The notes beneath the pieces were generated by a model, which saw nothing but the letters and a program-made list of their open reading frames with translations, had not been told where the DNA came from and made no database searches. Positions 14,368 to 42,800 of a stretch of 64,000 nucleotides of DNA are shown here, one piece after another. The translations under genes were made by a program, and so were the position numbers. This stretch comes from Hydrolagus colliei (taxonomy: Eukaryota): contig CM068747.1 of NCBI GenBank assembly GCA_035084275.1, positions 22,134,001-22,198,000 of the forward strand, in the 5' to 3' direction. Position 1 is the first letter of the stretch. The number at the start of each line of letters is the position of its first letter.

Positions 14368-15084
14368 CCGTATATCTCCGCGTATAAGGCGCACTTTTTT
14401 GCACGTCGGAAGATCTCGAAAGTTGGGGGTGCGCCCTATACGCAGGTACAAGAAATTTTGAGCCTCGGAAATACAGTAAACAGGAGGGGCGGCTGGCGCG
14501 CTGTCAGCCGGGGTTTGGTCAGTGTCCGGCGGGGGTTGGGGGGAGCGGGTGACGGGGCTTCGGCCTCGGCCGCCCAGGCAGCGGCAGCAGCAGCGGACTT
14601 CAGTGCTGTGCCTGCTGCCTGCCATCTGCCTTACCCAGTCTGCCTGCCTCACTCCCTGCCGCTCTCTCTCCCTGCCTGCCTGCCTCTCTCCCTCTCTCTC
14701 TCCCTGCCTGCCTGCCTCTCCCTCCCTCCCTGCCTGCCTGCGTGCCTGCCTGCCTCTCTCCCTCCCTGGCTGCCTGCCTGCTTCCCTCCCTCCCTCCCTC
14801 CCTGGCTGCCTTCCTGCCTGCCTCCATCCCTCCCTCTCTCTCTCCCTCCCTCCCTGTCTGCCTCCCTCCCTGCCTGCCTGCCTCTCTTCCTGTCTGCCTG
14901 TCTCCCTCTCTCCCTCCCTGGCTGCCTGCCTCTCTCTCTCTCCCTACCTACCTGTCTCTCCTGTCTCTCCTCCCTTCTGCCGGCAATATCATTGAAAATG
15001 CTTCCGTTTTTTTTCACCAAGAAAAGGTCAAAAGTGGGGGGTGCGCCTTATACGCGGGTGCGCCTTATATACGGAGATATACGG
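14368..15084. mobile_element. Tigger/pogo-like non-autonomous DNA transposon with CCTG/CCCT low-complexity core
   Basis: TIR CCGTATATCTCCG(C/T)(G/A)TATAAGGCGCAC at both ends, TA flanks. Confidence 0.88.
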
Positions 15085-19196: not shown

Positions 19197-20164
19197 TAGG
19201 GTCCGGCGATATATCGATATATCGCTGAAACCCGATATAATTTTCATATCAATACGCCGATATAGGCATTTCAAAAATATTGATATATCGAAAAATCAAT
19301 ATATCGAGGTAAAAAATCGGAATGCGCGCACACTGAACTACAAGACCCAGAATGCTCATCTCTATACACAATGCACAGACCAAGGTGCAAAGCCGCCATA
19401 TTGTATTCATAGTCCTAGAATACAATATACAGGTATGCAAGGGGTGAGGGGAAAGAGAAGGCTGGGGTGGGGGGTGAGAGAGATTGCTGGGGGGGGGGTG
19501 GGGGGGAGAGAGACGGCTGGGGGGTTGGTGGTGAGACGGCTGGTGGGGGGGGTGAGAGAGATGACTGGTGGGGGGTGCGGGGGGGAGAGAGACGGCTGGT
19601 GGGGGTGTGGGGGGTAGAGAGATGGCTGGTGGGGGGTGGGTGGGGAGAGAGATGGCTGGTGGGGGGTGGGGGGGGGGGGGGAGAGAGACGGCTGGTGGGG
19701 GGTGCGAGAGACGGCTGGGGGGGGTGAGAGAGAGACGGCTGGGGGGTGTGGGGCGGGAGAGAGATGGCTTGGGGGGGTGTGGGGGGGGGGGAGAGAGAGA
19801 TGGCTGGTGGGGGGAGGAAGAGAGACGGCTGGTGGGGGGTGGGGGGGTGAGAGACGGCTGGGGGGGGGTGGGAGGGAGAGAGACGGCTGGGGGGGGGTGT
19901 GGGGGGGAGAGAGACGGCTGGTGGGGGGTGGGGGGGGGGGGGGGGAGAGAGACGGCTGGGGGGAGGTGGGGGGGGGAGGGATAAGATGGAGAGAGTGAGA
20001 GACACAGAGAAAGATATTTACCTCCTGAGGAGATAGGCCCGGAATGCGCGCGCCACGCACGCATGCGCAGTACGAAACCCCTGAAAATATCGATATTTCG
20101 GTATATCTCGATATGAGCCGATCGATATATCTAAATCGGAAAATTTCCATATCGACGGACCCTA
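19197..20164. mobile_element. Non-autonomous hAT transposon with G-rich minisatellite core
   Basis: TIR TAGGGTCCG(G/T)CGATAT, perfect 8-bp TSD CTACACAG (19189-19196 and 20165-20172), repeated subterminal ATATCG/CGATAT motifs. Confidence 0.93.
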
Positions 20165-20230: not shown

Positions 20231-20236
20231 TTTAAT
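20231..20236 (-). terminator. Candidate NUP35 polyadenylation signal (ATTAAA)
   Basis: First A(A/T)TAAA I found on the minus strand after the stop codon, about 515 nt downstream; by-eye scan. Confidence 0.45.
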
Positions 20237-20749: not shown

Positions 20750-20827
20750 CTACCAGCCAAACATGTACTCCATGGCTTTGGAAACAAGGCTATCATCCTT
20801 TTTAGGCGTCTGTCGATCTGTAATCAC
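20750..20827 (-). CDS. NUP35: NUP35 exon 9 (last coding exon)
   Basis: [25 protein letters not shown]-stop (TAG). Confidence 0.97.
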
Positions 20828-23800
20828 CTTAAGACAACAAAGGGAAGAAAAAGAAAAAGAACATTACATTTTGCTCAAAGGTTCCTCTTAAATTTCAACT
20901 CTTCCCATTGAAAATTGAATCATTGCAGCAGGAACAAATCCAGTTTTCACAAACCTGGTTGTTTTTCACAAACCTGGTTGTTTTTCACAAACCTGGTTGT
21001 TTTTTCACAAATCTGGTAGTTTTTTCACAAACCTGGTAAATTTCACAAACCTGGTAGTTTTTTCACAAACCTGGTAGTCGCTGCTGGAAACTTTGTATGC
21101 TGCTGCAAGCGGTCTCATCGCAGTTGTTTTCGGTGTGCTGGTGGACTGTGTAGGCGTGCATACTGTTTTCATGGGAGGAGTGAAGACTGATGAAGGGACA
21201 GAGTTTCTGTTGCAGCCTTCCATGACACCCTTGAAAATGCACATAAGTAATTTCACGGTCACTATTTTTACATCATTTCTCATCATTTTTGATTTTAACA
21301 ATAAACACAAAGTAATAAGCAAGTTAACACAAGATACATCTTTGGCCAAGAATGTAATTTCTTAAGTATTCTTCTGTTAGGAGGAACAAACATCAAGTAG
21401 TCTATTCATTGCCGGTGAATATTGTGCGGAGTGAAGGTGGAAGGATAAAAAAGGGAGTGTTTGAAAACATATGGATACATTGATACTGTTTCTCCAAACC
21501 TCCCCAACTATTTTAAGAGAAACTACAAAAAGCAAATGCTAATGATCATCAGGGAAACTGTCTGTGAGGACTGGAGTTCATAAGTCCTCCATTGATTGGC
21601 TTTGTAAGAACCTTAAAGAAAACACATTGCACTGCAGACATCAGTAGTAGTGTCAAACATCTAATGTTTCTTTCAAAGCCTCCTCACCTTAGTTTCCAAC
21701 CACAGCTTGATGACAATGTTCAACTGTTTGCTCACCAATTACAGTAAAAGCCTGTTTATCTGGTCACCACGGGAGCCGGCCAATGCCGGTTAAACGGCAT
21801 GCCGGATATTTGGTCACATCCAATTCCGAAAACCCAACGCAAAACAATTACCTTATTTTAACACATACCATATTAATAATAGACTAACTAATAACAGACC
21901 TTTGTTATTCACCTAAAAATCACCTTTGCTGGTAGATGCCTGGTTTGAAGCCATGATGCTGGAGAAGTGTACAGTCAAACGGCAGCACGACTTTAAGGCT
22001 CTACTAGCAGCAAGCCAAAATACCTGTACAGTACTCTCGTGGGACAATCGATTCATTAAATGCTCCATCGTGATTGTGCCGGATGACATCCAGTTAATCG
22101 GATGGGAACTTTTCCTGTATTTTGAGGTTTAATATATTATGGGTATATAAATTCAGCAAACCCACCTTTTCAATGCATGGCTTAACTCCAACCATGATGG
22201 CTTCTCCAAAAATCTTTCCGTCTTTACTTAGCGCTTTCCTGGCTTGGAGTTTAGACTGATATTGAATATGCATCCAGTTCCCATTGTTTGACATCTGCAT
22301 AATGTTCAACAACCAGAGTCTGTTAGATATACTTGGCACTTTTACTGCATTTCAACTGATGATCACAATATATACTATGTTTTTCATGGCAATTCAACGT
22401 GAAAAGTGCAGAGCATGAAACACAGATAAATAATAATAATAAGCCTTGTATTTGATACAGCGCCTTATCACATCTTCTAGACATCGCAAAGCACGTCGCA
22501 GAATAGACTGCATTGAATTGACTGCATATTTTGTGGGTATAAGACGGCAGTCAGTTATGCACAGCCGTGTCCCACAACCAGTCATGGTTTGAGTGACCAA
22601 ATTATTGTAACTTAAAAATGTTTTTCAAAACGCAAGATAATTATTGGAATAACATGTCATTTTGTACAAGAGAGGAGTCTTCATTTGCTGAGCTTCAGGA
22701 TAAAAATGATTTAGGTATGAGCAATGACTGAGGATATCCAGGTCATTGGAATCTACTGCAACAAAGCTAATCAAATGCTAGGGTCAATCCAATCAATCAA
22801 AACTTACATTTATATAACACCTTTCGAGTCGAGAGGACGTCCCAAGGCACTGTACAGTCAGGTAGGGACAAGAACAGGCGGGGAGGGGCAGGATGAAGGA
22901 GAGTAGGAGAATTGACTGTATATTTGTGGGAGAAACACAACAGCCAAATTGCACATAGCAGTGTTGCACAAACAGTCTTGGAAGTGGAATTACGGGAGAA
23001 AAGGGGAAAAGAGGGTAAGGAGGGAGAGATGGCAAGGGGAGGGATCAGGGTAGGGGGAAGGAGAGCAGGAAAACCAACTGTATATTTGAGGGCGAAACGC
23101 GGCAGCCAAATTGCACACAGCAGTGTCCCACAAACAGTTGCGGAAATGGGACCAGGGGAGAAAGGGGAAAAGAGGGTATGGGGGGAGAGGGAGGGAAAGG
23201 TGGGTGGGAGGTCAAAATCAGGGAGAAAGCAGGGTAAGAAAGAAGAGGGAGANNNNNNNNNNNNNNNNNNNNNNNNNNNNNNNNNNNNNNNNNNNNNNNN
23301 NNNNNNNNNNNNNNNNNNNNNNNNNNNNNNNNNNNNNNNNNNNNNNNNNNNNNNNNNNNNNNNNNNNNNNNNNNNNNNNNNNNNNNNNNNNNNNNNNNNN
23401 NNNNNNNNNNNNNNNNNNNNNNNNNNNNNNNNNNNNNNNNNNNNNNNNNNNNNNNNNNNNNNNNNNNNNNNNNNNNNNNNNNNNNNNNNNNNNNNNGGGG
23501 CGGTAGGGGGATTAAACAACAATGGGGTACAGCATGAGGGCAAATGACAACATATCTAAAGGGGCTAGGCTAGTTTTGTCAGTTAAAGATTGTGTGCCAT
23601 TAGAGCACCCTACCTTCAAAAAATCATTCAAGCAGGAGAGAATTCAGAAGAGAAACAAGGATGATAGAGAATGGGGGGAAAAAAACATAACCAAGTTCTT
23701 TAAAACGATGAAGTGCCATGTAAGCACATAGAGTCCTGAAAAAAGTATGAGTTTTTTGTCTCCTCTCTTTATGACATTACATATAAGTAAAAGATCACCA

Positions 23801-26800
23801 AATGTCATCTAGCATGTAGATAACAATACAATTCATGGTAGACCACAATAAATTTACATAAACTGAAACGCATAATAACAGAAATGAGACTTACCACATG
23901 CTTCTGTATATTGCCATATTGTGCAAACTGTAGGAGGATGTAAGAAGCGGATGCTGGAGGAAACCTGAAAAAAGCCAAAATATTCTTAGCATTTTATTCC
24001 AAATTATGCTACTATACAGAACAGTGAAAAGCTAATGGTGCACACTAGTGAAGGTTAAACTTGCTTCTGCATTTTATCCACCCTGTGGAATTATTTTGTA
24101 CTTTCAAGAGAAATAATACAAACCCAAAGACTGTAATCCAGGTATCATCCAGATAATCGTTTGAGGTGAGAGATTCCCCCTGAGTGTAGAAAGGATCAGC
24201 TTGTGCAGGAGAAAGAGTAGCCTTCCTATGGTGTCCAATAGTGGCTGGACTAAATACATTCGGACCTAAGGTACAAAGAAGACTTGTTAAGCAAGGCCTC
24301 ATTGAGCGTTCCTCAAATTTCTTCTGTTCACAACTCAATCAGTTTTTGTGCAAGAGAAAATTCTTAAACTTGCCCTAATTTTCTTCTGCAGTGCACAAAA
24401 CTGGGTTTTAAATACTTGCATGTCTAAACAGTGCATTGAAAATTATGTTGCAAAAAGACCTTCGATTGAATCTGAGAACATTTGTGACACTAAAGTTTTC
24501 AGAAACTCCAATATTCACTGGTCATCTTTAGGATATATCTCCAGCTGCATAATCTTCTACAACATCAGGAATAATTTTAAACATGTTTTACTTTGATCTA
24601 CAAAGCAATAGGTATATGACCAGCAATTTTTGCAAAGTAATTAAATGCCCTCAATTGGAGTGTCTAACACTTTGGCTCAGAATTGCCAACATTCTGTCAT
24701 TACGAATCATCCCTATGATCATAAAAATGTAACAAGCAAGAAATATTATTCCTTTTGGGGATACAACAACCAGTTAATGCATCCAAAATAAATATAGTAC
24801 AAAGAATGAACCATCATGAAGTATACAGCAAAGCTGTTCAGTATTTAGAACAAAACCAGAAAGAAATCTATTCTCCAGGTCATGTTTCTATGAAGAGGTT
24901 ACAAATACCTCATATTCAGTATACTAACAAATGACATATACAAGTACTATACGTACATGCTCCAGGTGTTAATTGACTATTTACAGGAGGTGTTTGTATA
25001 TTTGAAATGTTAGCCTGCAAAAAAAAGGAAAGACAATTTAAATTAGCCCAGTAAGATTAAGATTGTCAATTACATTAAGTACCATTTCTGGCAAATAAGC
25101 ACTTAGTATTTGAATGGATCTGTTGACTGGATGTGTCTATCCTGGTACCAGCGCTATATGTAATTTTAACTCAATCAAGTTTTCCACAAGTTTCCTTTAG
25201 TTTTTTTTTAAAAAGTAAACTTTCCTAGTTTTCTGCTAGAGAAAGTCAAAAACATCAACCGGCAAGGGATGGCTAACATGGGCAAGCACAAATCATTTTT
25301 AGTCAAAGTAGATGTAGTGTGGTACTGATCTCTGTCAAAAATCATCTGAATGCTATACTGAGGCAAACATAGAAATATTTCACCCCCCGAAAAGAAAACA
25401 TCAAACTACTTACCAGTTTACGTGAAGTTAAGGGTGTGAGTCCACCTCCTGTAGTTCCCAAATCATCATACAAACTACGAACGGGTGGAGCGCCACTTTT
25501 ATCTTTAGATGTACAACTGGGCACAACTGGCTGGGGAGGTGTGCCTCCTGCATTCAGAGTCACAAAAATAAAAACAATTATTTCACAGAACTGAAAACTT
25601 GGGTTTTCCAAACAGTTCAAAACTCAAACCAAGAAAATCCAAAGCAAAGCCAAGATTTCTTTTTGTAATTGTGCTGGACAAGACTTACCTCCGAGAGGAG
25701 ATCGCACGTCCATTATACCTGCACTCGTTCCACCAAAGCTACGCGGTTGAGGAGTCACCGGAGCTGGTAAATCTCCCATGAGGAAACCAGGCAAAAACTG
25801 AGCATTTGCCCCAGGCTTAGGAGATGATGGTGATCCCAAGGCCATTGGCTCCGATCCTGCAAGAAGAATATTTTTTTTTCAACTGTACAGCTAAATGCTT
25901 CATTCCTAAAACATGAACTGAATGTGACTGAAAATCAGGGAACAAAGGGGGAGCGGAGCGAAGGTGAAGAGAGAGCAAAGAAGAAATCAGCCAGAAATCC
26001 TGCTTCTGATTGTTACCAAGTGACTGTTCAAAAACACGTGAACAGGCTTAGGCATGATAACCCAACAGTCAAATTTGTGCCTACAAATGAAGTATGATCA
26101 CTTGCACACAGTACCAGATGGCTATTGTCACCTGTCAAACCGTAGATTCAGCGCAAACATTCATCATTAGGACACATTCCCTGTTAGCTGTTATTTATTT
26201 GTTTGAGGGATCATTATCAGGCTTGTGGAGTAAGGAAACTTGCCCGAGGTTTTGCCCTGACCCGCCTGGACTCAAACTCTGGTCTCTCGCTTGTACGGCT
26301 GGTGCTCTAACCACCGAGTTACAGGACTCTGCTGAGGCAGCCAAGACACGATGATCGGCCACAGGCAGCTGCGTATTGTATCAGTGCAGGCAATTACAAT
26401 ACAGTAGATACTGTAGAACAAAGCTCCTGTGGCTGCCTCCCAAAATATCAGCTTCTGGTTTTCACACTGATCTCTCTCTCTCTATACACTATATGTATAT
26501 ATATATATATATATACACACAATACATCTATATGCAATATATTATACATATACACGTGAAGCGCTTTGAGACATCTAGAAGTGAAAAGCGCGATATCAAA
26601 TGCAAGGATTATTATCATATTATCATATTATTATCACATTATATATGTATGTATCTATACACAGCGAACACAAGAGCAGAATAATCCTGATCTCGAGGCA
26701 CCTCACATCAAACTCCTTCCGTGTGGCCGCTGACGGGCGACAGCCATGAGATACACAACCCCCTCCCAACCGCCCTGACCCCCAGCCCCCACTCCTCAAC

Positions 26801-27252
26801 AACAACAACAATTTACATTTATAGAGCGCCTTTCACGTCGGGAGGACGTCCCAAGGCGCTGTGGTGAGGACAGGTCCAGGTCCAGGGGGCGGGAGGTGAT
26901 GGGTGGGTGTGTTTGAAGTGTGTGTGTGTGCATCACAGCCATGATCAACAACAACATGACACCGGTCGTGTTAAAGCGCTCTGAGGCGCTGTCCGTCGTG
27001 GAGGGCGCTATACAAATCCAAGCTGTTGTTGTTGTTGTTGTTGTTGAGGCTGTCGATCCACATACGCCCCCCCCCCCCCCACCTCCTGTAGTGACTGCGG
27101 GTCGCGGGGCCCGAACCCCGATCTCCGGCTTCCCTCGCGCCGAGCCTGATGAAACCCGGTGCTGGGCGGCTGACGGAGCCTCGCGCGGCGCTGGCAGAGG
27201 CCGGTTGCAAATGGGGAAAGTCGCGGCGAGTCGTCTCACCTTGAAACTCCAT
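20750..27252 (-). CDS. NUP35: Nucleoporin NUP35/NUP53, complete spliced CDS (9 exons, 951 nt, 316 aa)
   Basis: Exons 27252-27240, 25856-25689, 25547-25414, 25014-24957, 24265-24124, 23964-23895, 22294-22166, 21229-21071, 20827-20750. All introns GT-AG with matching phases. Protein [33 protein letters not shown]...[23 protein letters not shown]...KAMEYMFGW, recognisably Nup35 with its RRM-like domain. Confidence 0.97.
20944..21077 (-). repeat. 7-copy 18-20 bp tandem repeat of the NUP35 exon 8/intron 8 junction
   Basis: Unit on minus strand C(T/A)ACCAG GTTTGTGAAA(A)n; six copies keep GT, one has AT. Confidence 0.92.
21071..21229 (-). CDS. NUP35: NUP35 exon 8
   Basis: [22 protein letters not shown]...[16 protein letters not shown]; donor CAG|GTTTGT. 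Confidence 0.95.
21742..22128 (-). mobile_element. Truncated copy of the CAGTAAAAGCC Tigger-like MITE family, in NUP35 intron 7
   Basis: Reverse complement of the ends of the 57975 and 59801 elements; one terminus missing. Confidence 0.78.
22166..22294 (-). CDS. NUP35: NUP35 exon 7
   Basis: [43 protein letters not shown]. Confidence 0.97.
23253..23496. other. Assembly gap (N run)
   Basis: 244 N, in NUP35 intron 6. Confidence 1.
23895..23964 (-). CDS. NUP35: NUP35 exon 6
   Basis: [23 protein letters not shown]; donor GTAAGT. Confidence 0.96.
24124..24265 (-). CDS. NUP35: NUP35 exon 5
   Basis: [10 protein letters not shown]...[30 protein letters not shown]. Confidence 0.95.
24957..25014 (-). 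CDS. NUP35: NUP35 exon 4
   Basis: 58 nt, [19 protein letters not shown], ttgcag acceptor and GTACGT donor; phases fit. Confidence 0.88.
25414..25547 (-). CDS. NUP35: NUP35 exon 3
   Basis: [30 protein letters not shown]...TPLTSRKL; AG/GTAAGT boundaries. Confidence 0.95.
25689..25856 (-). CDS. NUP35: NUP35 exon 2
   Basis: cttgcag|GA TCG GAG CCA ATG...; [39 protein letters not shown]...SPLG; donor GTAAGT. Confidence 0.96.
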
Positions 27253-29594: not shown

Positions 29595-29783
29595 TCATTT
29601 GTTTGGCTGGTACTTCCTTAGTTGTTCATCAAAGCCAGCATTAGGATTGCTCGCTGGCCTTGCATTTTTTACCAATGAGAACGCATCTTCAAAGCTTAGT
29701 CCAGCTACATTCATAAGGTATCCTATAACGATAGATGCAGAACGTGATACTCCAGCATTGCAGTGAACCAGTGCAACTCCATC
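29595..29783 (-). CDS. DUSP19: DUSP19 coding exon 4
   Basis: [24 protein letters not shown]...[17 protein letters not shown]-stop. Confidence 0.97.
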
Positions 29784-32700
29784 CTTAAAGAAGGAAATCG
29801 AAAACAAATAATTCAAACATTTACCTGTATTTTTAAACAAATACAAGTTTGAAAACTGGTTCATTTCAATTACATGAGCAAAACACGTTACAATGCAATA
29901 TTGCCATTTTTCAAATAGCAAGAAATTGTTAACATTTTAAAAAATATATCCCAAGTATCTCAATGGCATCTAATTACACAATGCAAAGTTCAAGTAAATG
30001 AAAATAATAATTGTGCATCCTTATACATGTATATTTTTGTGCAACAAAGCCACTATCAGCCATTTTCTGCCACAATAATTAGCTGCTCAATTAGCAGTTG
30101 CAAATGGATTTTCATGTTGATTCATTTTATGAAGACAGGTAGCTTTCCTGGCTTGATATTGGGTTGTTATTGTGAAAGGATTGTTAGGCATCAGCTATCT
30201 TTCATCGCCATGCTGGCCTCATTTGAGATTGAGCATAGTATTAATTTCCAAATGAAGACGAAGGTTTCTTAACTGCTTCAGTTGATTGGACTTATTAGTA
30301 GCAGTTTCATATTGCATGTAATGATATCTGAAGTCTGATAAAGACACTATAAAAACAACAATGGCTATTAGTGGAATAGCTTTTCACACTATCTTCAGTA
30401 ATAAATAATGAACACTGGTTGTTCTTATGTGTGTGGAGTCAATTTCCTTCTGAGTATATTCCTTCGCAACCGAAAAACAAGGAAATATGGTTCAGTGGAA
30501 AAAATCATTAATTATTCACTATGTGTACCTAAACAGTTTACAATATTCTATTTGTATATTTTATTACTAAGTAAACCATTTATATTCAATCAAAATGTTC
30601 ATAATTTGTTTCCGTATTATCTGAAGTGTTCTAAAAAAACAATTTGCTCTCTCTCTCTCGAAGATGTACTCACCTTTGTCCTTGCTTGATCAATAAAACT
30701 GAAGCATTCTTGGAAATATGAAGTGATTTTAGTCTCTGGAAGGTCCAGTATGGGAATGCTTTTATAGGTGAAAACATCTGGAAAGGCATTTTCTATTCCA
30801 TAGCCTACATTCAAAATGTGTGAAATCTTAGGAAGAAAAGCAATTGCAGTAAACTGATGCACAAAACTACATGTTATGCATCAAACATTACTTTATACAT
30901 TTGAATTATATCTGATTCACCATAACTAGCCAAGAAGATAAGCAAGGTGAATGGTTCCCAGCCTCTCCTGCTGAGATTGTCTCTCTAACTTTCACTCTCA
31001 TTTTCTCTTTCTCGCACAGAAAAGTACGAACTCTAATCTGTTTTAGTTTCCAGTCAGTTGAATGTGGGAACACATGGAAAATCCTTGAGAGACAGTGTGC
31101 GTTCTGTACTTCGGAGGAGTGAATTAGTGCACGAGTAAAACATGTCACACTGGGCCACTGAGCATGTTGGTATATCATTAATGAGACACACTATGTCAAC
31201 AACAACAACAACTTCGATTTATATAGCACCCCCCCACACCGGACGGCGTCTCAGAGGCTTCACCATAACAGAAATACTGTGAAAATGTCACCTTTGCCAC
31301 ATTGTATTTGTAGATAAAGAATCCTTGCATTTGAATCCAGTGCCTTTTGAGAATGTGCATCTCAGAAATTAGTATAAAGTTTATTAGTCACTGTATTTTA
31401 CAGGTTTTATTTCTGAAGTTAGTTATTGTCTCTTTTTTTTCCCTGGTCTCACTACTGGCTGTATCTGAAATAGCAGACTGCTAGCAATTGAATCTGTTCT
31501 GAGCTAGGTGTTGAGAGTTACAGTATCTCAGCAGAGTTCATTGCTTTGTCTACAATACTCACCTACTCCAAATCAATTCATTGGAAATTAAGAAACTGGG
31601 GGTATTGTAGTTAAAATCTCTAATGCACTATTATAGTGCTGTCACATTATGATATTATTAAACAAAACATCTCACAGCATTTTGTATACCTTAAACTTTT
31701 TCAATGTCTCATAATCCTGGGCCACGTCTTGTGAAGCTGAAACAATAACAACATTGACATTAGGAATGGTGATAATCTTGAATCATGGAAAGAGAGCAGC
31801 GCTGAAGAAATGCACATGGATACATTGTAATGAATTAACCTTGTTTGGGAATAAAAGCCTTTAGAAACATATTTGAGCTAATTTTATTTGCTTCAGTGTT
31901 TTGGAAATTGGATGGCCTGAACAGTGACCTTACACAAAATAGATGGGATGAAGAGCAACTTTTTAATCCTGTAATTGTAGGTGCTAAAACTACTTGATAC
32001 TAATGTTGGATAGAATGTCTATCAACAACGCAACAAAGCAAGGATTGCTTTCAGTCATGAATGGCTTGAAAGTGGATCCAACCGAACATGGTAACCTTAA
32101 CCATTACTATTGTGCACACTGATTATACTTTCAAACATAATTTTTATTTAAAAGGAAAAACAATAATAAACAAGTCGCATTTGCAAACTGACATCATATA
32201 ATTGTGGGATATATGTTACCATCAAAATGTGTAGTGCTCCATGGTACAAAATAGCGTACCGTATTTGCATTGCAGAAATAATGGAGAAGATGTCAGATAC
32301 TGTAGTCTGGTTTACCTCGAGTGTCTTAAATAACTGGACTAATGTTCAATAGAATCTTACGGCACAAAATATAAACAGTATAACTACATTTGGATTGGTG
32401 AGATATCATTTTTCCCCAATGCAAAAAACTTACCCGTCGAGAGTTTTTCATAACCCTGTTTATACATTTTTGTTCCATATTCCAATACAATATCCCTTCA
32501 GATTCAGTGGCGAGAGTACTTCCAGTGAGCCATACCAATCATATAAAAGCTACCTTATGTCCCTGCCTTCATTATACAGTACATTGTGGATTGTACGGAT
32601 ACACAGTTAAACAAGGGCACAAATCATTGAAATTAGTGGCTCAATACTGAACTGTTTCACTTCTGGACATTGTAGGTTTTGTCTTGCAAGCAAGAGACCT

Positions 32701-34607: not shown

Positions 34608-35500
34608 ACAACAACAACAAAATTACATTTATAAAGCGCCTTTCACATCAGGAGGACGTCCCCGGGCGCTGATCATTTAGGTCAGGACCCAAGCAGTGGG
34701 GGATGGGTCGGGTAGGGGGAAGGAGAGTAGGAAAAAGGTGGGAAAGTTAAGAGGGGAGCAAAAGGCACGGTCGAAGAGGAAGCTCTTGAGACTAGGCTTG
34801 AAGGAGGAAAGGGAGGAAACGAGACAAAGGGATTGCGGGATGGAATTCCAGAGTGTGGGGGCAGAGAGGCTGAAATCCCGGCCACCGATGGTAGGGTGGT
34901 TCGGGCGGGGTACATGGGGCAGGCCAGAGCCTGCTGAATGGAGGGGATGGGCAGGCTGATAAGGAGACAGCAGGTCGGAGAGATAGGCGGGGGCAAGGCT
35001 GTGAATGGCCTTGAAGGTGAGGACGAGGATCTTGAGTTTGATCCTCTGGGGGATGGGGAGCCAGTGGAGAATGGTGAGGGTGGGAGTGATATGGTAGTGG
35101 AGCCTAGTGCGGGAGAGTACATGAGCTGCAGAGTTCTGAACAATCTGCAGCTTGTCAAGGGAAGAGCTGAGAAGGCCGACGAGAAGAGAGCTCCCATAGT
35201 CGAGCCTAGTTGTGATGAATGCGTGGACGTGATTTCGGCAGCATGGAGGGGTGAGGTAGTGGCAGAGTCTGACAATGTTGCAGAGGTGGTGGAAGGCAGT
35301 GGCGCTGATTTGGGGGAAGGAAGGACAGTTCAGGGTCGAACAAGATGCCCAGATTCCTGACTGGCTTTGAGAGGTGGAGAGTACAGCCTTGAATGCTGAT
35401 GTTGCCAGTGCCTGATGTGCGGAGGCGCTGACGCGAGCCAATCAGGAGGGCCTCCATCTTGTTGACACATCAAGAGAAGTACAGCCTTGAATGCTGATGC
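34608..35500 (-). mobile_element. L2 LINE 3' fragment (tail type B), frameshifted
   Basis: ORFs 34677..35441 and 35206..35457: EALLIGSRQRL, VRNLGILFDPELSF, HAFITTRLDYGSSLL, LHWLPIPQRI. Confidence 0.93.
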
Positions 35501-39339: not shown

Positions 39340-39800
39340 TCCCAACCACTCTGAGAAGTCACGTGAGCGGGAGGGAGCTGCGGCGGGGCCGGGAGGAAGC
39401 TGAGCCTCGCTCTGTGTGTGTGTGTGTGTGGGTGGGTGCGGCCGCCACCTCAAGCCTGAGTGAGGGAGAGAGAGTGAGGGGAGGGAACGGGCGTGAGGGA
39501 GAGAGAGTAAAGGAAGGAAACAGGTTAGTGGAGAGAGGGAGAGAGGGGGGAGGGGGGAGAGGAGGAAACTCACTCGCCTCCTTAAACACCCCCCGCCTCG
39601 CCCCACCCCCCGCCTGACCTGATCAACCGCCACCTTTTTGATTTTACCCGAGAGCACACGGTTTATCAGTCGCCGGTGAGGGAAGTGGGGAGAGAGAGAG
39701 AGAGACAGGGGGAGAGACAGACAGGGAGAGAGAGAGAGAGAGAGAGAGAGACTGTGCCCCGCGCTCCGCGCCATGTCCAGGGCGGTGATGTCGAGCCAGC
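39340..39800 (+). promoter_or_regulatory. NCKAP1 GC/CpG-rich promoter and 5'UTR
   Basis: CpG-rich; E-box GTCACGTGA at 39358-39366, GC boxes, (GT)n and (GA)n tracts; Kozak-like CGCCATGT. Confidence 0.65.
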
Positions 39801-39877
39801 AGAAGATCGCGGAGAAGCTGACCATTCTGAACGACAGGGGGGTTGGTATGCTGACCCGCATTTATAACATCAAAAAG
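39773..39877 (+). CDS. NCKAP1: NCKAP1 exon 1
   Basis: [35 protein letters not shown]|GTAAGG. Confidence 0.97.
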
Positions 39878-42800
39878 GTAAGGACTGCTCACACTCCCCC
39901 TCCCTCACTCCCCCTCCCTCACTCCCCCTCCGCCCCCTCCCTCACTCCCCCTCCCTCACTCCCCCTCCCTCACCCCCTCCGCCCCCTCCCTCACCCCCTC
40001 CGCCCCCTCCCTCACCCCCTCCGCCCACTCCCCCTCACTCACTCCCCCCCCCCTCACTCACTCCCCCTCCCCCCCTCCCTCACTCCCCCCCTCCCTCACT
40101 CACCCCCCTCCCTCACTCACCCCCCTCCCTCACTCACCCCCCTCCCTCACTCACCCCCCTCCCTCACTCACCCCCCTCCCTCACTCACCCTCTGCCCCCC
40201 TCCCTCACTCCCCCTCTGCCCCCCTCCCTCTTTCCCTTCTTCATTCGTAACCCCCCCCCATCTGCCTCCCTCCCTCTTCCTTCCTCCCCTCCCTCTCTCT
40301 ACTCCCTTCCTTCTCTACCCCCCTCTTTCCTCCTCCCCCTTACCGCCTCCCTCCCTTTTCCTCTCCCTCTCCCCCCCACCCCCTTCCTCTCCCCCTCCCC
40401 CCCCACCCCCTTCCTCTCCCCCTCCCCCCCCACCCCCTTCCTCTCCCCCTCCCCCCCCCACCCCCTTCCTCTCCCCCTCCCCCCCCCACCCCCTTCCTCT
40501 CCCCCTCCCCCCCCCACCCCCTTCCTCTCCCCCCCCACCCCCTTCCTCTCCCCCTCCCCCCCCCACCCCCTTCCTCTCCCCCTCCCCCCCCCCACCCCCT
40601 TCCTCTCCACCCCCCACCCCCTTCCTCTCCCCCTCCCCCCCTTCCTCTCCCCCTCTCCCCCTCCCCCCCTTCCTCTCCCCCTCTCCCCCTCCCCCCCTTC
40701 CTCTCCCCCCCCACCCCCTTCCTCTCCCCCCCCACCCCCCTTCCTCTCCCCCCTCCCCCCCCACCCCCTTCCTCTCCCCCCTCCCCCCCCACCCCCTTCC
40801 TCTCCCCCCTCCCCCCCCACCCCCTTCCTCTCCCCCCTCCCCCCCCACCCCCTTCCTCTCCCCCCTCCCCCCCCACCCCCTTCCTCTCCCCCCTCCCCCC
40901 CCACCCCCTTCCTCTCCCCCCTCCCCCCCCACCCCCTTCCTCTCCCCCCTCCCCCCCCACCCCCTTCCTCTCCCCCCTCCCCCCCCACCCCCTTCCTCTC
41001 CCCCCCCACCCCCTTCCTCTCCCCCCCCACCCCCTTCCTCTCCCCCCCCACCCCCTTCCTCTCCCCCCCCACCCCCTTCCTCTCCCCCCCCACCCCCTTC
41101 CTCTCCCCCCTCCCCCCCCACCCCCTTCCTCTCCCCCCTCCCCCCCCACCCCCTTCCCCTCCCCCCTCCCCCCCCACCCCCTTCCCCTCCCCCCTCCCCC
41201 CCCACCCCCTTCCTCTCCCCCCTCCCCCCCCACCCCCTTCCTCTCCCCCCTCCCCCCCCACCCCCTTCCTCTCCCCCCTCCCCCCCCACCCCCTTCCTCT
41301 CCCCCCTCCCCCCCCACCCCCTTCCTCTCCCCCCTCCCCCCCCACCCCCTTCCTCTCCCCCCTCCCCCCCCCACCCCCTTCCTCTCCCCCCTCCCCCCCC
41401 ACCCCCTTCCTCTCCCCCCTCTCTCCCTTCCCCCCCCCACCCCCTTCCTCTCCCTCCTCTCTCCCTTCCTCCCCTCCCCCCCGTTCTCTTCTTTCCCTCC
41501 CCCCTATCTTGTCCCTCATCTCTTCCTTCCCCCCATCTCTCCCTTCGTCCTTCTCTCTCAGGGTTTATAACCGCCTCCCTCTCGGCCGTCATTTTACAGC
41601 CTCCCAATATGTCCGGCCTAGTGCAGCCTCAGCCACCAGCCTATTGACAACCAGCTCTCACTCTGCACTCAACCTGCATCTGCTTTGGGCTCTTGGGTCC
41701 AGAGCCGTGTCTGTGTCCTTCCCCACTGTGCTTCACAGCTCAGTGTGTGAGGAGAGAGAAGGAATTAGTCAGCCTGTGTGTGTGTGTTTTTACAGTAGAT
41801 TATTTGTCCCTCCCTGCCTTTACAAGTCAGTTGCTCTCTTGATTTATCAACAAGACAAATGTCTCAGGGTTATTGTGTTCTACAACCCCCCCACCCCATC
41901 ATCACCTTACACAGTGTGATGTGCTGAGAGTGTAGCCCCCCCTCCCCCCCTAAAAAAAATGTCACCCAATCCCCAAATGCAGTAGCATCCCCAGCCTTTA
42001 TTTTGTCTTATTGTAGCACATCCAAGAAAATGTTTCCAGCTATAACAATTAAGTATTCTTATTTGCCTCGCCAGCTTTGAGAAATGCTGCATTTGTTTTT
42101 CTTCTCTCTGAAAGGAAATTGAGCTGAATTTACTACTCAAGTTGTGTTGCACTGTATTCAATTTTAAAGAACATTAAAAAAAATACAGTATATACTTTTC
42201 TCTGATTTGTTCTGGTTTATCTTTGAATTGTGTTGCAAATCTGGTCAGATGAAAGCTTTATCATTGAGTCTTGTGAAACCAAAGTGGTATTTTGGCCGGA
42301 TATATGTGGTTTCTGTTTGTGGTTGATAGAGGAAGTATTACAGGATTGCTTGAATGTTTAAGAACATCATTAACACTGCTTTGTTAAAAAAAAGTATGCT
42401 ACATGGTGGTGCAAAGTCGGCTCACTAGAGTAGGATTAATATATTTGTCCAGTAACAATAGAAATATTACTGACCTCAGATGTGTGAACATATACTGACA
42501 CTATCAACAAGAACAACAAACATTTCATTTATTGAGCGCCTTTCACATCGGGGGGGACCTCATACAGGCACTGCCTGTACAAAATTATTCTGTGCAGTTA
42601 CTTTGAAAGTTAATCAACCCTTCAGTTTATGTGGATAATTTCAAACTATTTTCATAATCCCAATTATCCAAGGATTATTGACTTGTCAGTTATACACAGT
42701 AATCATAGCCTGAAGTTTAAGACTTTTAAAAAAAATAGCAATAGCTAACCAAATATTTTACTGTACATTAGAACATTCTTTTCATTCAATCATTATATTT

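Follow-up and report, generated by a model that had tools for sequence, protein, structure and literature searches.

A minisatellite spanning the exon 8/intron 8 boundary reiterates the splice donor of NUP35 in a cartilaginous fish and is probably a harmless repeat

Introduction

The human F7 gene carries in intron 7 a 37-bp variable number tandem repeat whose first unit includes the last 4 bases of the exon (Borensztajn et al. 2006, PMC1557585; PMC6627357). According to PMC1557585, which dissected F7 with 50 minigenes, only the first of 5–9 identical donors is used, the most upstream site winning by its position and not by a special sequence; knockout of the first donor activates the next copy, and strengthened downstream copies become competitors only once they are perfect. 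The same paper cites the LMNB2 and PDGF intron-4 arrays as using the first site only, and 6-16 (intron 2) and CBS (intron 13) as using two pseudo-sites besides the authentic one. The amphioxus 'mirage' minisatellites of Adh3 and the globins leave splicing undisturbed (PMC3087553). Artificial duplicates of a globin donor follow a different rule, in that use of the downstream site climbs beyond ~30 nt and is ~100% at spacings of at least 45 nt (PMC3413131). Latent 5' splice sites, which are intronic donors lying after an in-frame stop, are normally silent; in human cells, heat shock and hypoxia switch them on (PMC3510495).

The C-terminal tail of Nup53/NUP35 has a membrane role and separates two modes of pore assembly, post-mitotic and interphase (PMC3474928); interphase assembly in Xenopus extracts requires the native tail, including the Trp at its very end (PMC3474928; review PMC8700311). 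Here we analyse a 64,000-nt stretch of DNA, referred to as the window, in which intron 8 of NUP35 reiterates the end of exon 8 together with its donor. A sequence-only reading of the window had treated the choice among these donors as an open and unusual dilemma, a view that is not supported, since the layout has been described in human F7, CBS, 6-16, LMNB2 and PDGF (PMC1557585). The NUP35 array adds a new case to this already described class of boundary-spanning donor repeats; a literature search of mostly open-access papers gave no paper on the array itself among the matches listed.

Results

Splicing at the first donor yields a NUP35 of 316 aa encoded by nine exons, all GT-AG and without an internal stop, and the earlier numbering of exons 8 and 9 is correct. 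The protein is identical to that of Callorhinchus milii (elephant shark, P0003) in 298 of 318 columns and to stingray NUP35 in 248 of 318, which makes a chimaera the probable host; P0003 holds PF05172, with the Pfam RRM at its residues 161–242. The gene has a Nup35 RRM, a tail ending in FGW and one full locus in the genome, as is characteristic of a NUP35 orthologue. Its parts in the window are:

22166..27252, minus strand: NUP35 coding exons 1–7 (27252–27240, 25856–25689, 25547–25414, 25014–24957, 24265–24124, 23964–23895, 22294–22166), no internal stop
21071..21229, minus strand: exon 8 (159 nt, both ends in phase 0), with the authentic donor following 21071; joins exon 9 in frame as in Callorhinchus P0003
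20828..20850, minus strand: polypyrimidine tract and AG, the one good intron-8 acceptor (pyrimidine fraction 0.85–0.9; other AGs 0.25–0.55)
20750..20827, minus strand: coding part of exon 9, 25 residues ending KAMEYMFGW, 24/25 identical to Callorhinchus P0003

The normal tail ends all seven chondrichthyan NUP35 proteins examined (7 of the 12 listed), which come from other species and leave intron 8 unseen. A DNA search of the genome for a retrocopy that would record the exon 8–9 joint matched the NUP35 gene alone. A second protein match, on G000:C2, covers only the exon 5–6 joint. This stray piece (L006 3769–4232; G000:C2, ~43795770–43796230, minus strand) has the last 15 nt of exon 5 fused to exon 6, and over 81 nt the joint is 98.8% identical to the spliced form; it continues into ~380 nt of intron 6, the whole stretch being 86% identical, and sits right behind a repeat that is also present in NUP35 intron 6 (70%). 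It looks like a reverse-transcribed fragment of a partly spliced transcript.

Upstream of NUP35 lie dual-specificity phosphatase exons (PF00782, window 29598–30880, minus strand), which we take to belong to DUSP19, and the first coding exon of NCKAP1 (PF09735, window 39773–39877, plus strand), an order of neighbours that is presumably that of the human genes. Long C/T-rich (or G/A-rich) minisatellites occupy window positions 39908–41482 (plus strand), 19464–19978 and 14640–14975. The one among them with a 28-nt unit, of ~58 copies, starts ~30 nt past the donor of NCKAP1 exon 1, and one of its frames is stop-free for 624 codons, probably by composition. A decayed open frame of 253 codons (window 34680–35441, minus strand) has no Pfam match at E 0.001 and is presumably LINE-like.

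The end of NUP35 exon 8 together with its donor is present seven times head-to-tail on the minus strand at 20944–21078, for which TRF reports a period of 20 nt, 6.9 copies and 89% matches. The last exonic bases of the copies are 21071, 21051, 21033, 21013, 20993, 20974 and 20955, placing donors at +0, +20, +38, +58, +78, +97 and +116 with units of 20, 18, 20, 20, 19 and 19 nt; the fourth copy in order (+58) carries AT for GT. Intron 8 is 243 nt long and exon 9 starts at 20827. The 14-mer spanning donor positions −4 to +10 occurs six times in the window, every time inside the array, where composition predicts ~0.0005 per window, and a tandem pair of the donor motif has four matches in the 1.0-Gb genome, all at the array, with 0 for the reversed control. 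TRF and the motif count thus bear out what had been read by eye, seven copies of the junction with identical donors at these offsets and one GT>AT. As the first head-to-tail unit straddles the exon 8/intron 8 boundary and the intron repeats an identical donor (six identical 14-mers of equal predicted U1 energy), the array is, by its layout, a boundary-spanning minisatellite like the one in human F7 intron 7 and the amphioxus 'mirages'. Its features are:

20944..21078, minus strand: minisatellite of seven copies, each made of the last 4–8 nt of NUP35 exon 8 and the first 10–14 nt of intron 8 (TRF, motif count)
21043..21053, minus strand: donor copy +20, GT at 21050–21049, predicted product 298 aa (sequence, predicted U1 pairing)
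21025..21035, minus strand: donor copy +38, predicted product 304 aa (sequence, predicted U1 pairing)
21005..21015, minus strand: dead copy +58 (GT>AT), contains the TGA at 21007–21005 (predicted U1 pairing −1.6 kcal/mol)
20947..20995, minus strand: donor copies +78, +97 and +116 (ends 20993, 20974, 20955), sharing one predicted 312-aa product (sequence, predicted U1 pairing)
21008..21070, minus strand: 21-codon read-through frame, entered via the far donors or by intron retention, with a high predicted helical hydrophobic moment

The array is not an assembly echo. Sequencing runs X2, X6, X7 and X9 were examined out of ten listed from four studies, with no RNA dataset among them (X1, X3, X4, X5, X8 and X10 were left out); X2 bears the same organism label as the window (organism A) and may be the sample underlying it, X6 and X7 are two samples of one study, and X9 is from organism B. 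In X2 one 833-nt contig runs over 20975–21500 with one differing letter and no gap and bridges the +0, +20, +38 and +58 junctions by at least 31 letters; three further contigs cover the remainder of the array with 0–1 differing letters, leaving the exact count of the identical 19-nt units unfixed, and sequencing depth is raised on the repeated 19-mers. The earlier argument that units differing from one another speak against an echo is thereby strengthened: the X2 contigs reproduce the array and relatives carry two to three copies.

The sequences from X6, X7 and X9 are 98–99% alike to the window. X6 and X7, whose contigs are shallow (depth 4.6 and 5, respectively), lack 2 nt at 21058; in X9, 20 nt are missing at 21040. 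All three thus have a first unit of 18 nt. The X6 contig passes from the third copy directly into the unique 3' flank, its 10-letter loose end matching 20943–20934, with 5 of 8 differing letters unplaced, and so X6 has three copies; the X9 array probably has two, a number that two contigs fit without bridging it. Copy number among these organisms is therefore seven in the window, three in X6 and probably two in X9. The extra donors of the relatives (+18 and +36 in X6, +18 in X9) would add 6 or 12 in-frame residues and keep the tail. The sequence-only reading had proposed to look for the copies in related species, where several are indeed found; that the units there are in frame had escaped it. 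Since the tail is kept in the relatives and lost here, the outcome of downstream splicing is not conserved. A conserved alternative 5' splice-site isoform was considered and rejected, as the in-frame +18/+36 of X6 and +18 of X9 stand against the out-of-frame +20/+38 of the window.

The single-copy state has ACT at exon positions −8 to −6 and again at intron positions +11 to +13, 18 nt apart, so that slippage between them predicts exactly the 18-nt founding unit. The array likely arose through replication slippage, as these triplets suggest: a slip between the two ACT would have created the 18-nt in-frame unit, after which more slippage or unequal exchange would have added copies while the A-run lengthened, the units grew to 19–20 nt and the frame was lost. 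We infer the order of copy number to be 1, 2, 3, 7, with the later changes of the A-run breaking the frame in organism A. Organism A tolerates a 20-nt unit that breaks the frame.

The pairing energies of the donors were calculated with the 5'-end sequence of U1. The six live donors are predicted to pair equally (−8.3 kcal/mol each), as the earlier reading had supposed, and the dead +58 copy reaches −1.6 kcal/mol; among the eight donors of NUP35 the array donor is the third weakest, hence middling. Intron 5 likewise begins with GTTTGT (window 24123–24118, minus strand), and the intron-4 donor (24956–24951, minus strand) has a very weak predicted U1 pairing of −3.2 kcal/mol. RNA folding gives the seven sites low predicted unpaired probabilities (0.000–0.031), with no advantage for the first donor. 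Intron 8 holds no frame-restoring alternative acceptor with a pyrimidine tract, nor AATAAA or ATTAAA, a single ATTAAA lying at 20236. With equal donors, no exposure of the first and no usable acceptors, what decides between the donors must be their position and the exon context. The copies were also considered as recursive (AG|GT) splice sites or a proto-splice-site duplication, which was rejected, the pyrimidine fraction before them being 0.35–0.5 versus 0.9 at the real acceptor.

By translation, the +20 and +38 donors give products of 298 and 304 aa that stop at a TGA at the very start of exon 9, and +78, +97 and +116 give 312 aa each, stopping at the TGA 21007–21005, which lies 12, 31 and 50 nt, respectively, from the last junction. 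The translations, the stops and the limit of about 50 nt given earlier are all correct. As exon 8 is the penultimate exon, products of a wrong donor would escape NMD. The claim that each extra donor deletes the tail applies to +20 and +38; the three far donors, as translated, swap the native tail for one of 21 residues and do not merely truncate it. In the predicted 312-aa form it is the repeat that encodes these last 21 residues, and the same protein would result from +78, +97, +116 or intron retention. A query of exon 8 plus the read-through tail, used to find proteins reading into the array, gave 2 matches among 23 longer candidates, both normal-tailed, and no short relative was found among proteins of 40–130 aa.

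Discussion

We propose that the first donor carries nearly all splicing, with a probability of about 0.7, producing normal NUP35 and leaving the other copies as silent passengers. This estimate reflects that the native tail is needed for interphase assembly, so that heavy downstream use should be costly, that the gene is single-copy and that exon 9 is undecayed; the one full locus, the intact first-donor product and the normal-tailed chondrichthyan proteins point the same way. On the other side, sequence alone does not single out the first donor. The U1 footprint is wider than the 18–20-nt spacing of the NUP35 units, and compared with the 37-nt units of F7 neighbouring donors thus lie closer together than one footprint. 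As in F7, U1 would be committed at the first site it meets past the exon with its enhancers, and a second U1 would be hindered alongside; trace downstream use is compatible with this, and the next copies may plausibly see minor use. Copy number and frame vary between close relatives, which fits an unconstrained repeat. With the first donor likely carrying nearly all splicing, the array is probably harmless. The globin downstream rule for spacings of at least 45 nt would count against first-donor splicing, three live copies lying at 78–116 nt.

An unlikely alternative, which still deserves weight, is that the choice is leaky, as in 6-16 and CBS, the +20 and +38 donors being used at 10% or more to give tail-less proteins of 298 and 304 aa that escape NMD and are tolerated as noise, with no programme behind them. 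The donors are identical, and the weak downstream bias under ~30 nt could let them share use (PMC3413131); two pseudo-sites are used in two of the five human cases (PMC1557585), the donor is a middling one, third weakest of the eight in NUP35, and at the birth of the array, when the ancestral 18-nt units were in frame, leakage would have done no harm. Against this, F7, LMNB2 and PDGF use the first site only (PMC1557585), and a tail-less subunit, retaining the RRM dimerisation domain, would likely poison dimers in interphase assembly, as we infer from PMC3474928.

It is considerably less probable that truncation is regulated, tissue- or stress-activated downstream donors supplying a tail-less NUP35 for post-mitotic and not interphase assembly. 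The idea draws on the separation of the two assembly modes by the tail (PMC3474928) and on the stress activation of latent donors in human cells, by heat shock and by hypoxia (PMC3510495). In the relatives, however, the same donors are in frame (+18, +36) and keep the tail, so that the outcome is not conserved, and no such isoform appears in the 7 of 12 listed chondrichthyan proteins or is evident, among the matches listed, in the literature on NUP35 isoforms.

We consider it highly improbable that a substantial share of transcripts comes from a far copy (+78, +97, +116) or from intron retention, so that a 21-residue cationic amphipathic helix born from the repeat replaces the native membrane-binding end. 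Hydrophobic moments were calculated on a scale of Fauchere-Pliska hydrophobicity values. The best 11-mer of the new tail has a predicted moment of 0.79 (0.70 if Pro-free) versus 0.48 for the native tail, on one scale and one window size and examined post hoc. Among the stop-free 21-codon stretches of the window, 3 of 3286 attain a moment of 0.79, as do 3 of 826 AT-rich ones, 1/5000 and 5/5000 periodic nulls and 9/5000 shuffled units; 0.70 is attained by 28/5000 and 50/5000. The product would also be close to normal in length (312 versus 316 aa), and the downstream rule for donors at least 45 nt apart would favour the far copies (PMC3413131). The frame, however, is missing from the inferred three-copy X6 allele (moment 0.58) and is thus not conserved; exon 9 is undecayed (24/25 identical), the new tail lacks the terminal Trp required by interphase assembly (PMC3474928), and the searches described above gave normal-tailed proteins only and no short relative. 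The high amphipathic moment of the read-through frame is, in these models, probably a matter of chance. A switchable NUP35 end in the chimaera lineage, in which far donors would swap and near donors delete the tail and so shift post-mitotic versus interphase assembly, is likewise a long shot. Were the swap real, a splice-site repeat would have given rise to a working membrane helix in an essential nucleoporin.

That the assembler echoed a single donor is next to negligible, for although short tandem repeats can be mis-counted and the contigs leave the number of identical 19-nt units unfixed, the units differ, the X2 contigs agree to the letter with most of the array and show raised 19-mer depth, and other organisms have two to three copies, so that the contigs largely refute this reading.

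If first-donor splicing holds, the locus gives the known class an example from a cartilaginous fish whose copy history (1-2-3-7) is visible, and matters little beyond that. It does offer a natural test, as natural arrays (F7) favour the upstream donor whereas artificial duplicates at least 45 nt apart favour the downstream one: the donors of the NUP35 array are identical and lie at short (20, 38 nt) as well as long (78–116 nt) range, and NMD would not hide their products.

The closest likeness is to F7, with a boundary-spanning first unit that includes the last 4 exon bases and several identical middling donors after the real one; copy number varies in F7 and, for NUP35, differs between related organisms. 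Unlike in F7, the NUP35 units are 18–20 nt instead of 37 nt, the exon is penultimate and one copy is dead. CBS, 6-16, LMNB2 and PDGF share the reiteration of donors by a boundary-spanning repeat and differ from NUP35 in that CBS and 6-16 use two pseudo-sites too and that these arrays are longer, with 10–25 copies. The +78, +97 and +116 donors resemble latent 5' sites in being preceded by an in-frame stop, whereas +20 and +38 have no such stop upstream, and the NUP35 copies are exact and made by duplication. With the amphioxus mirages, likewise from a chordate, the array has in common an exon boundary copied in tandem and some units with lost splice signals; the copy number of the mirages is unstable, as that of NUP35 differs between related organisms. 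The mirage unit is 10–160 bp, and NUP35 stands apart by its cartilaginous fish host and its very short unit.
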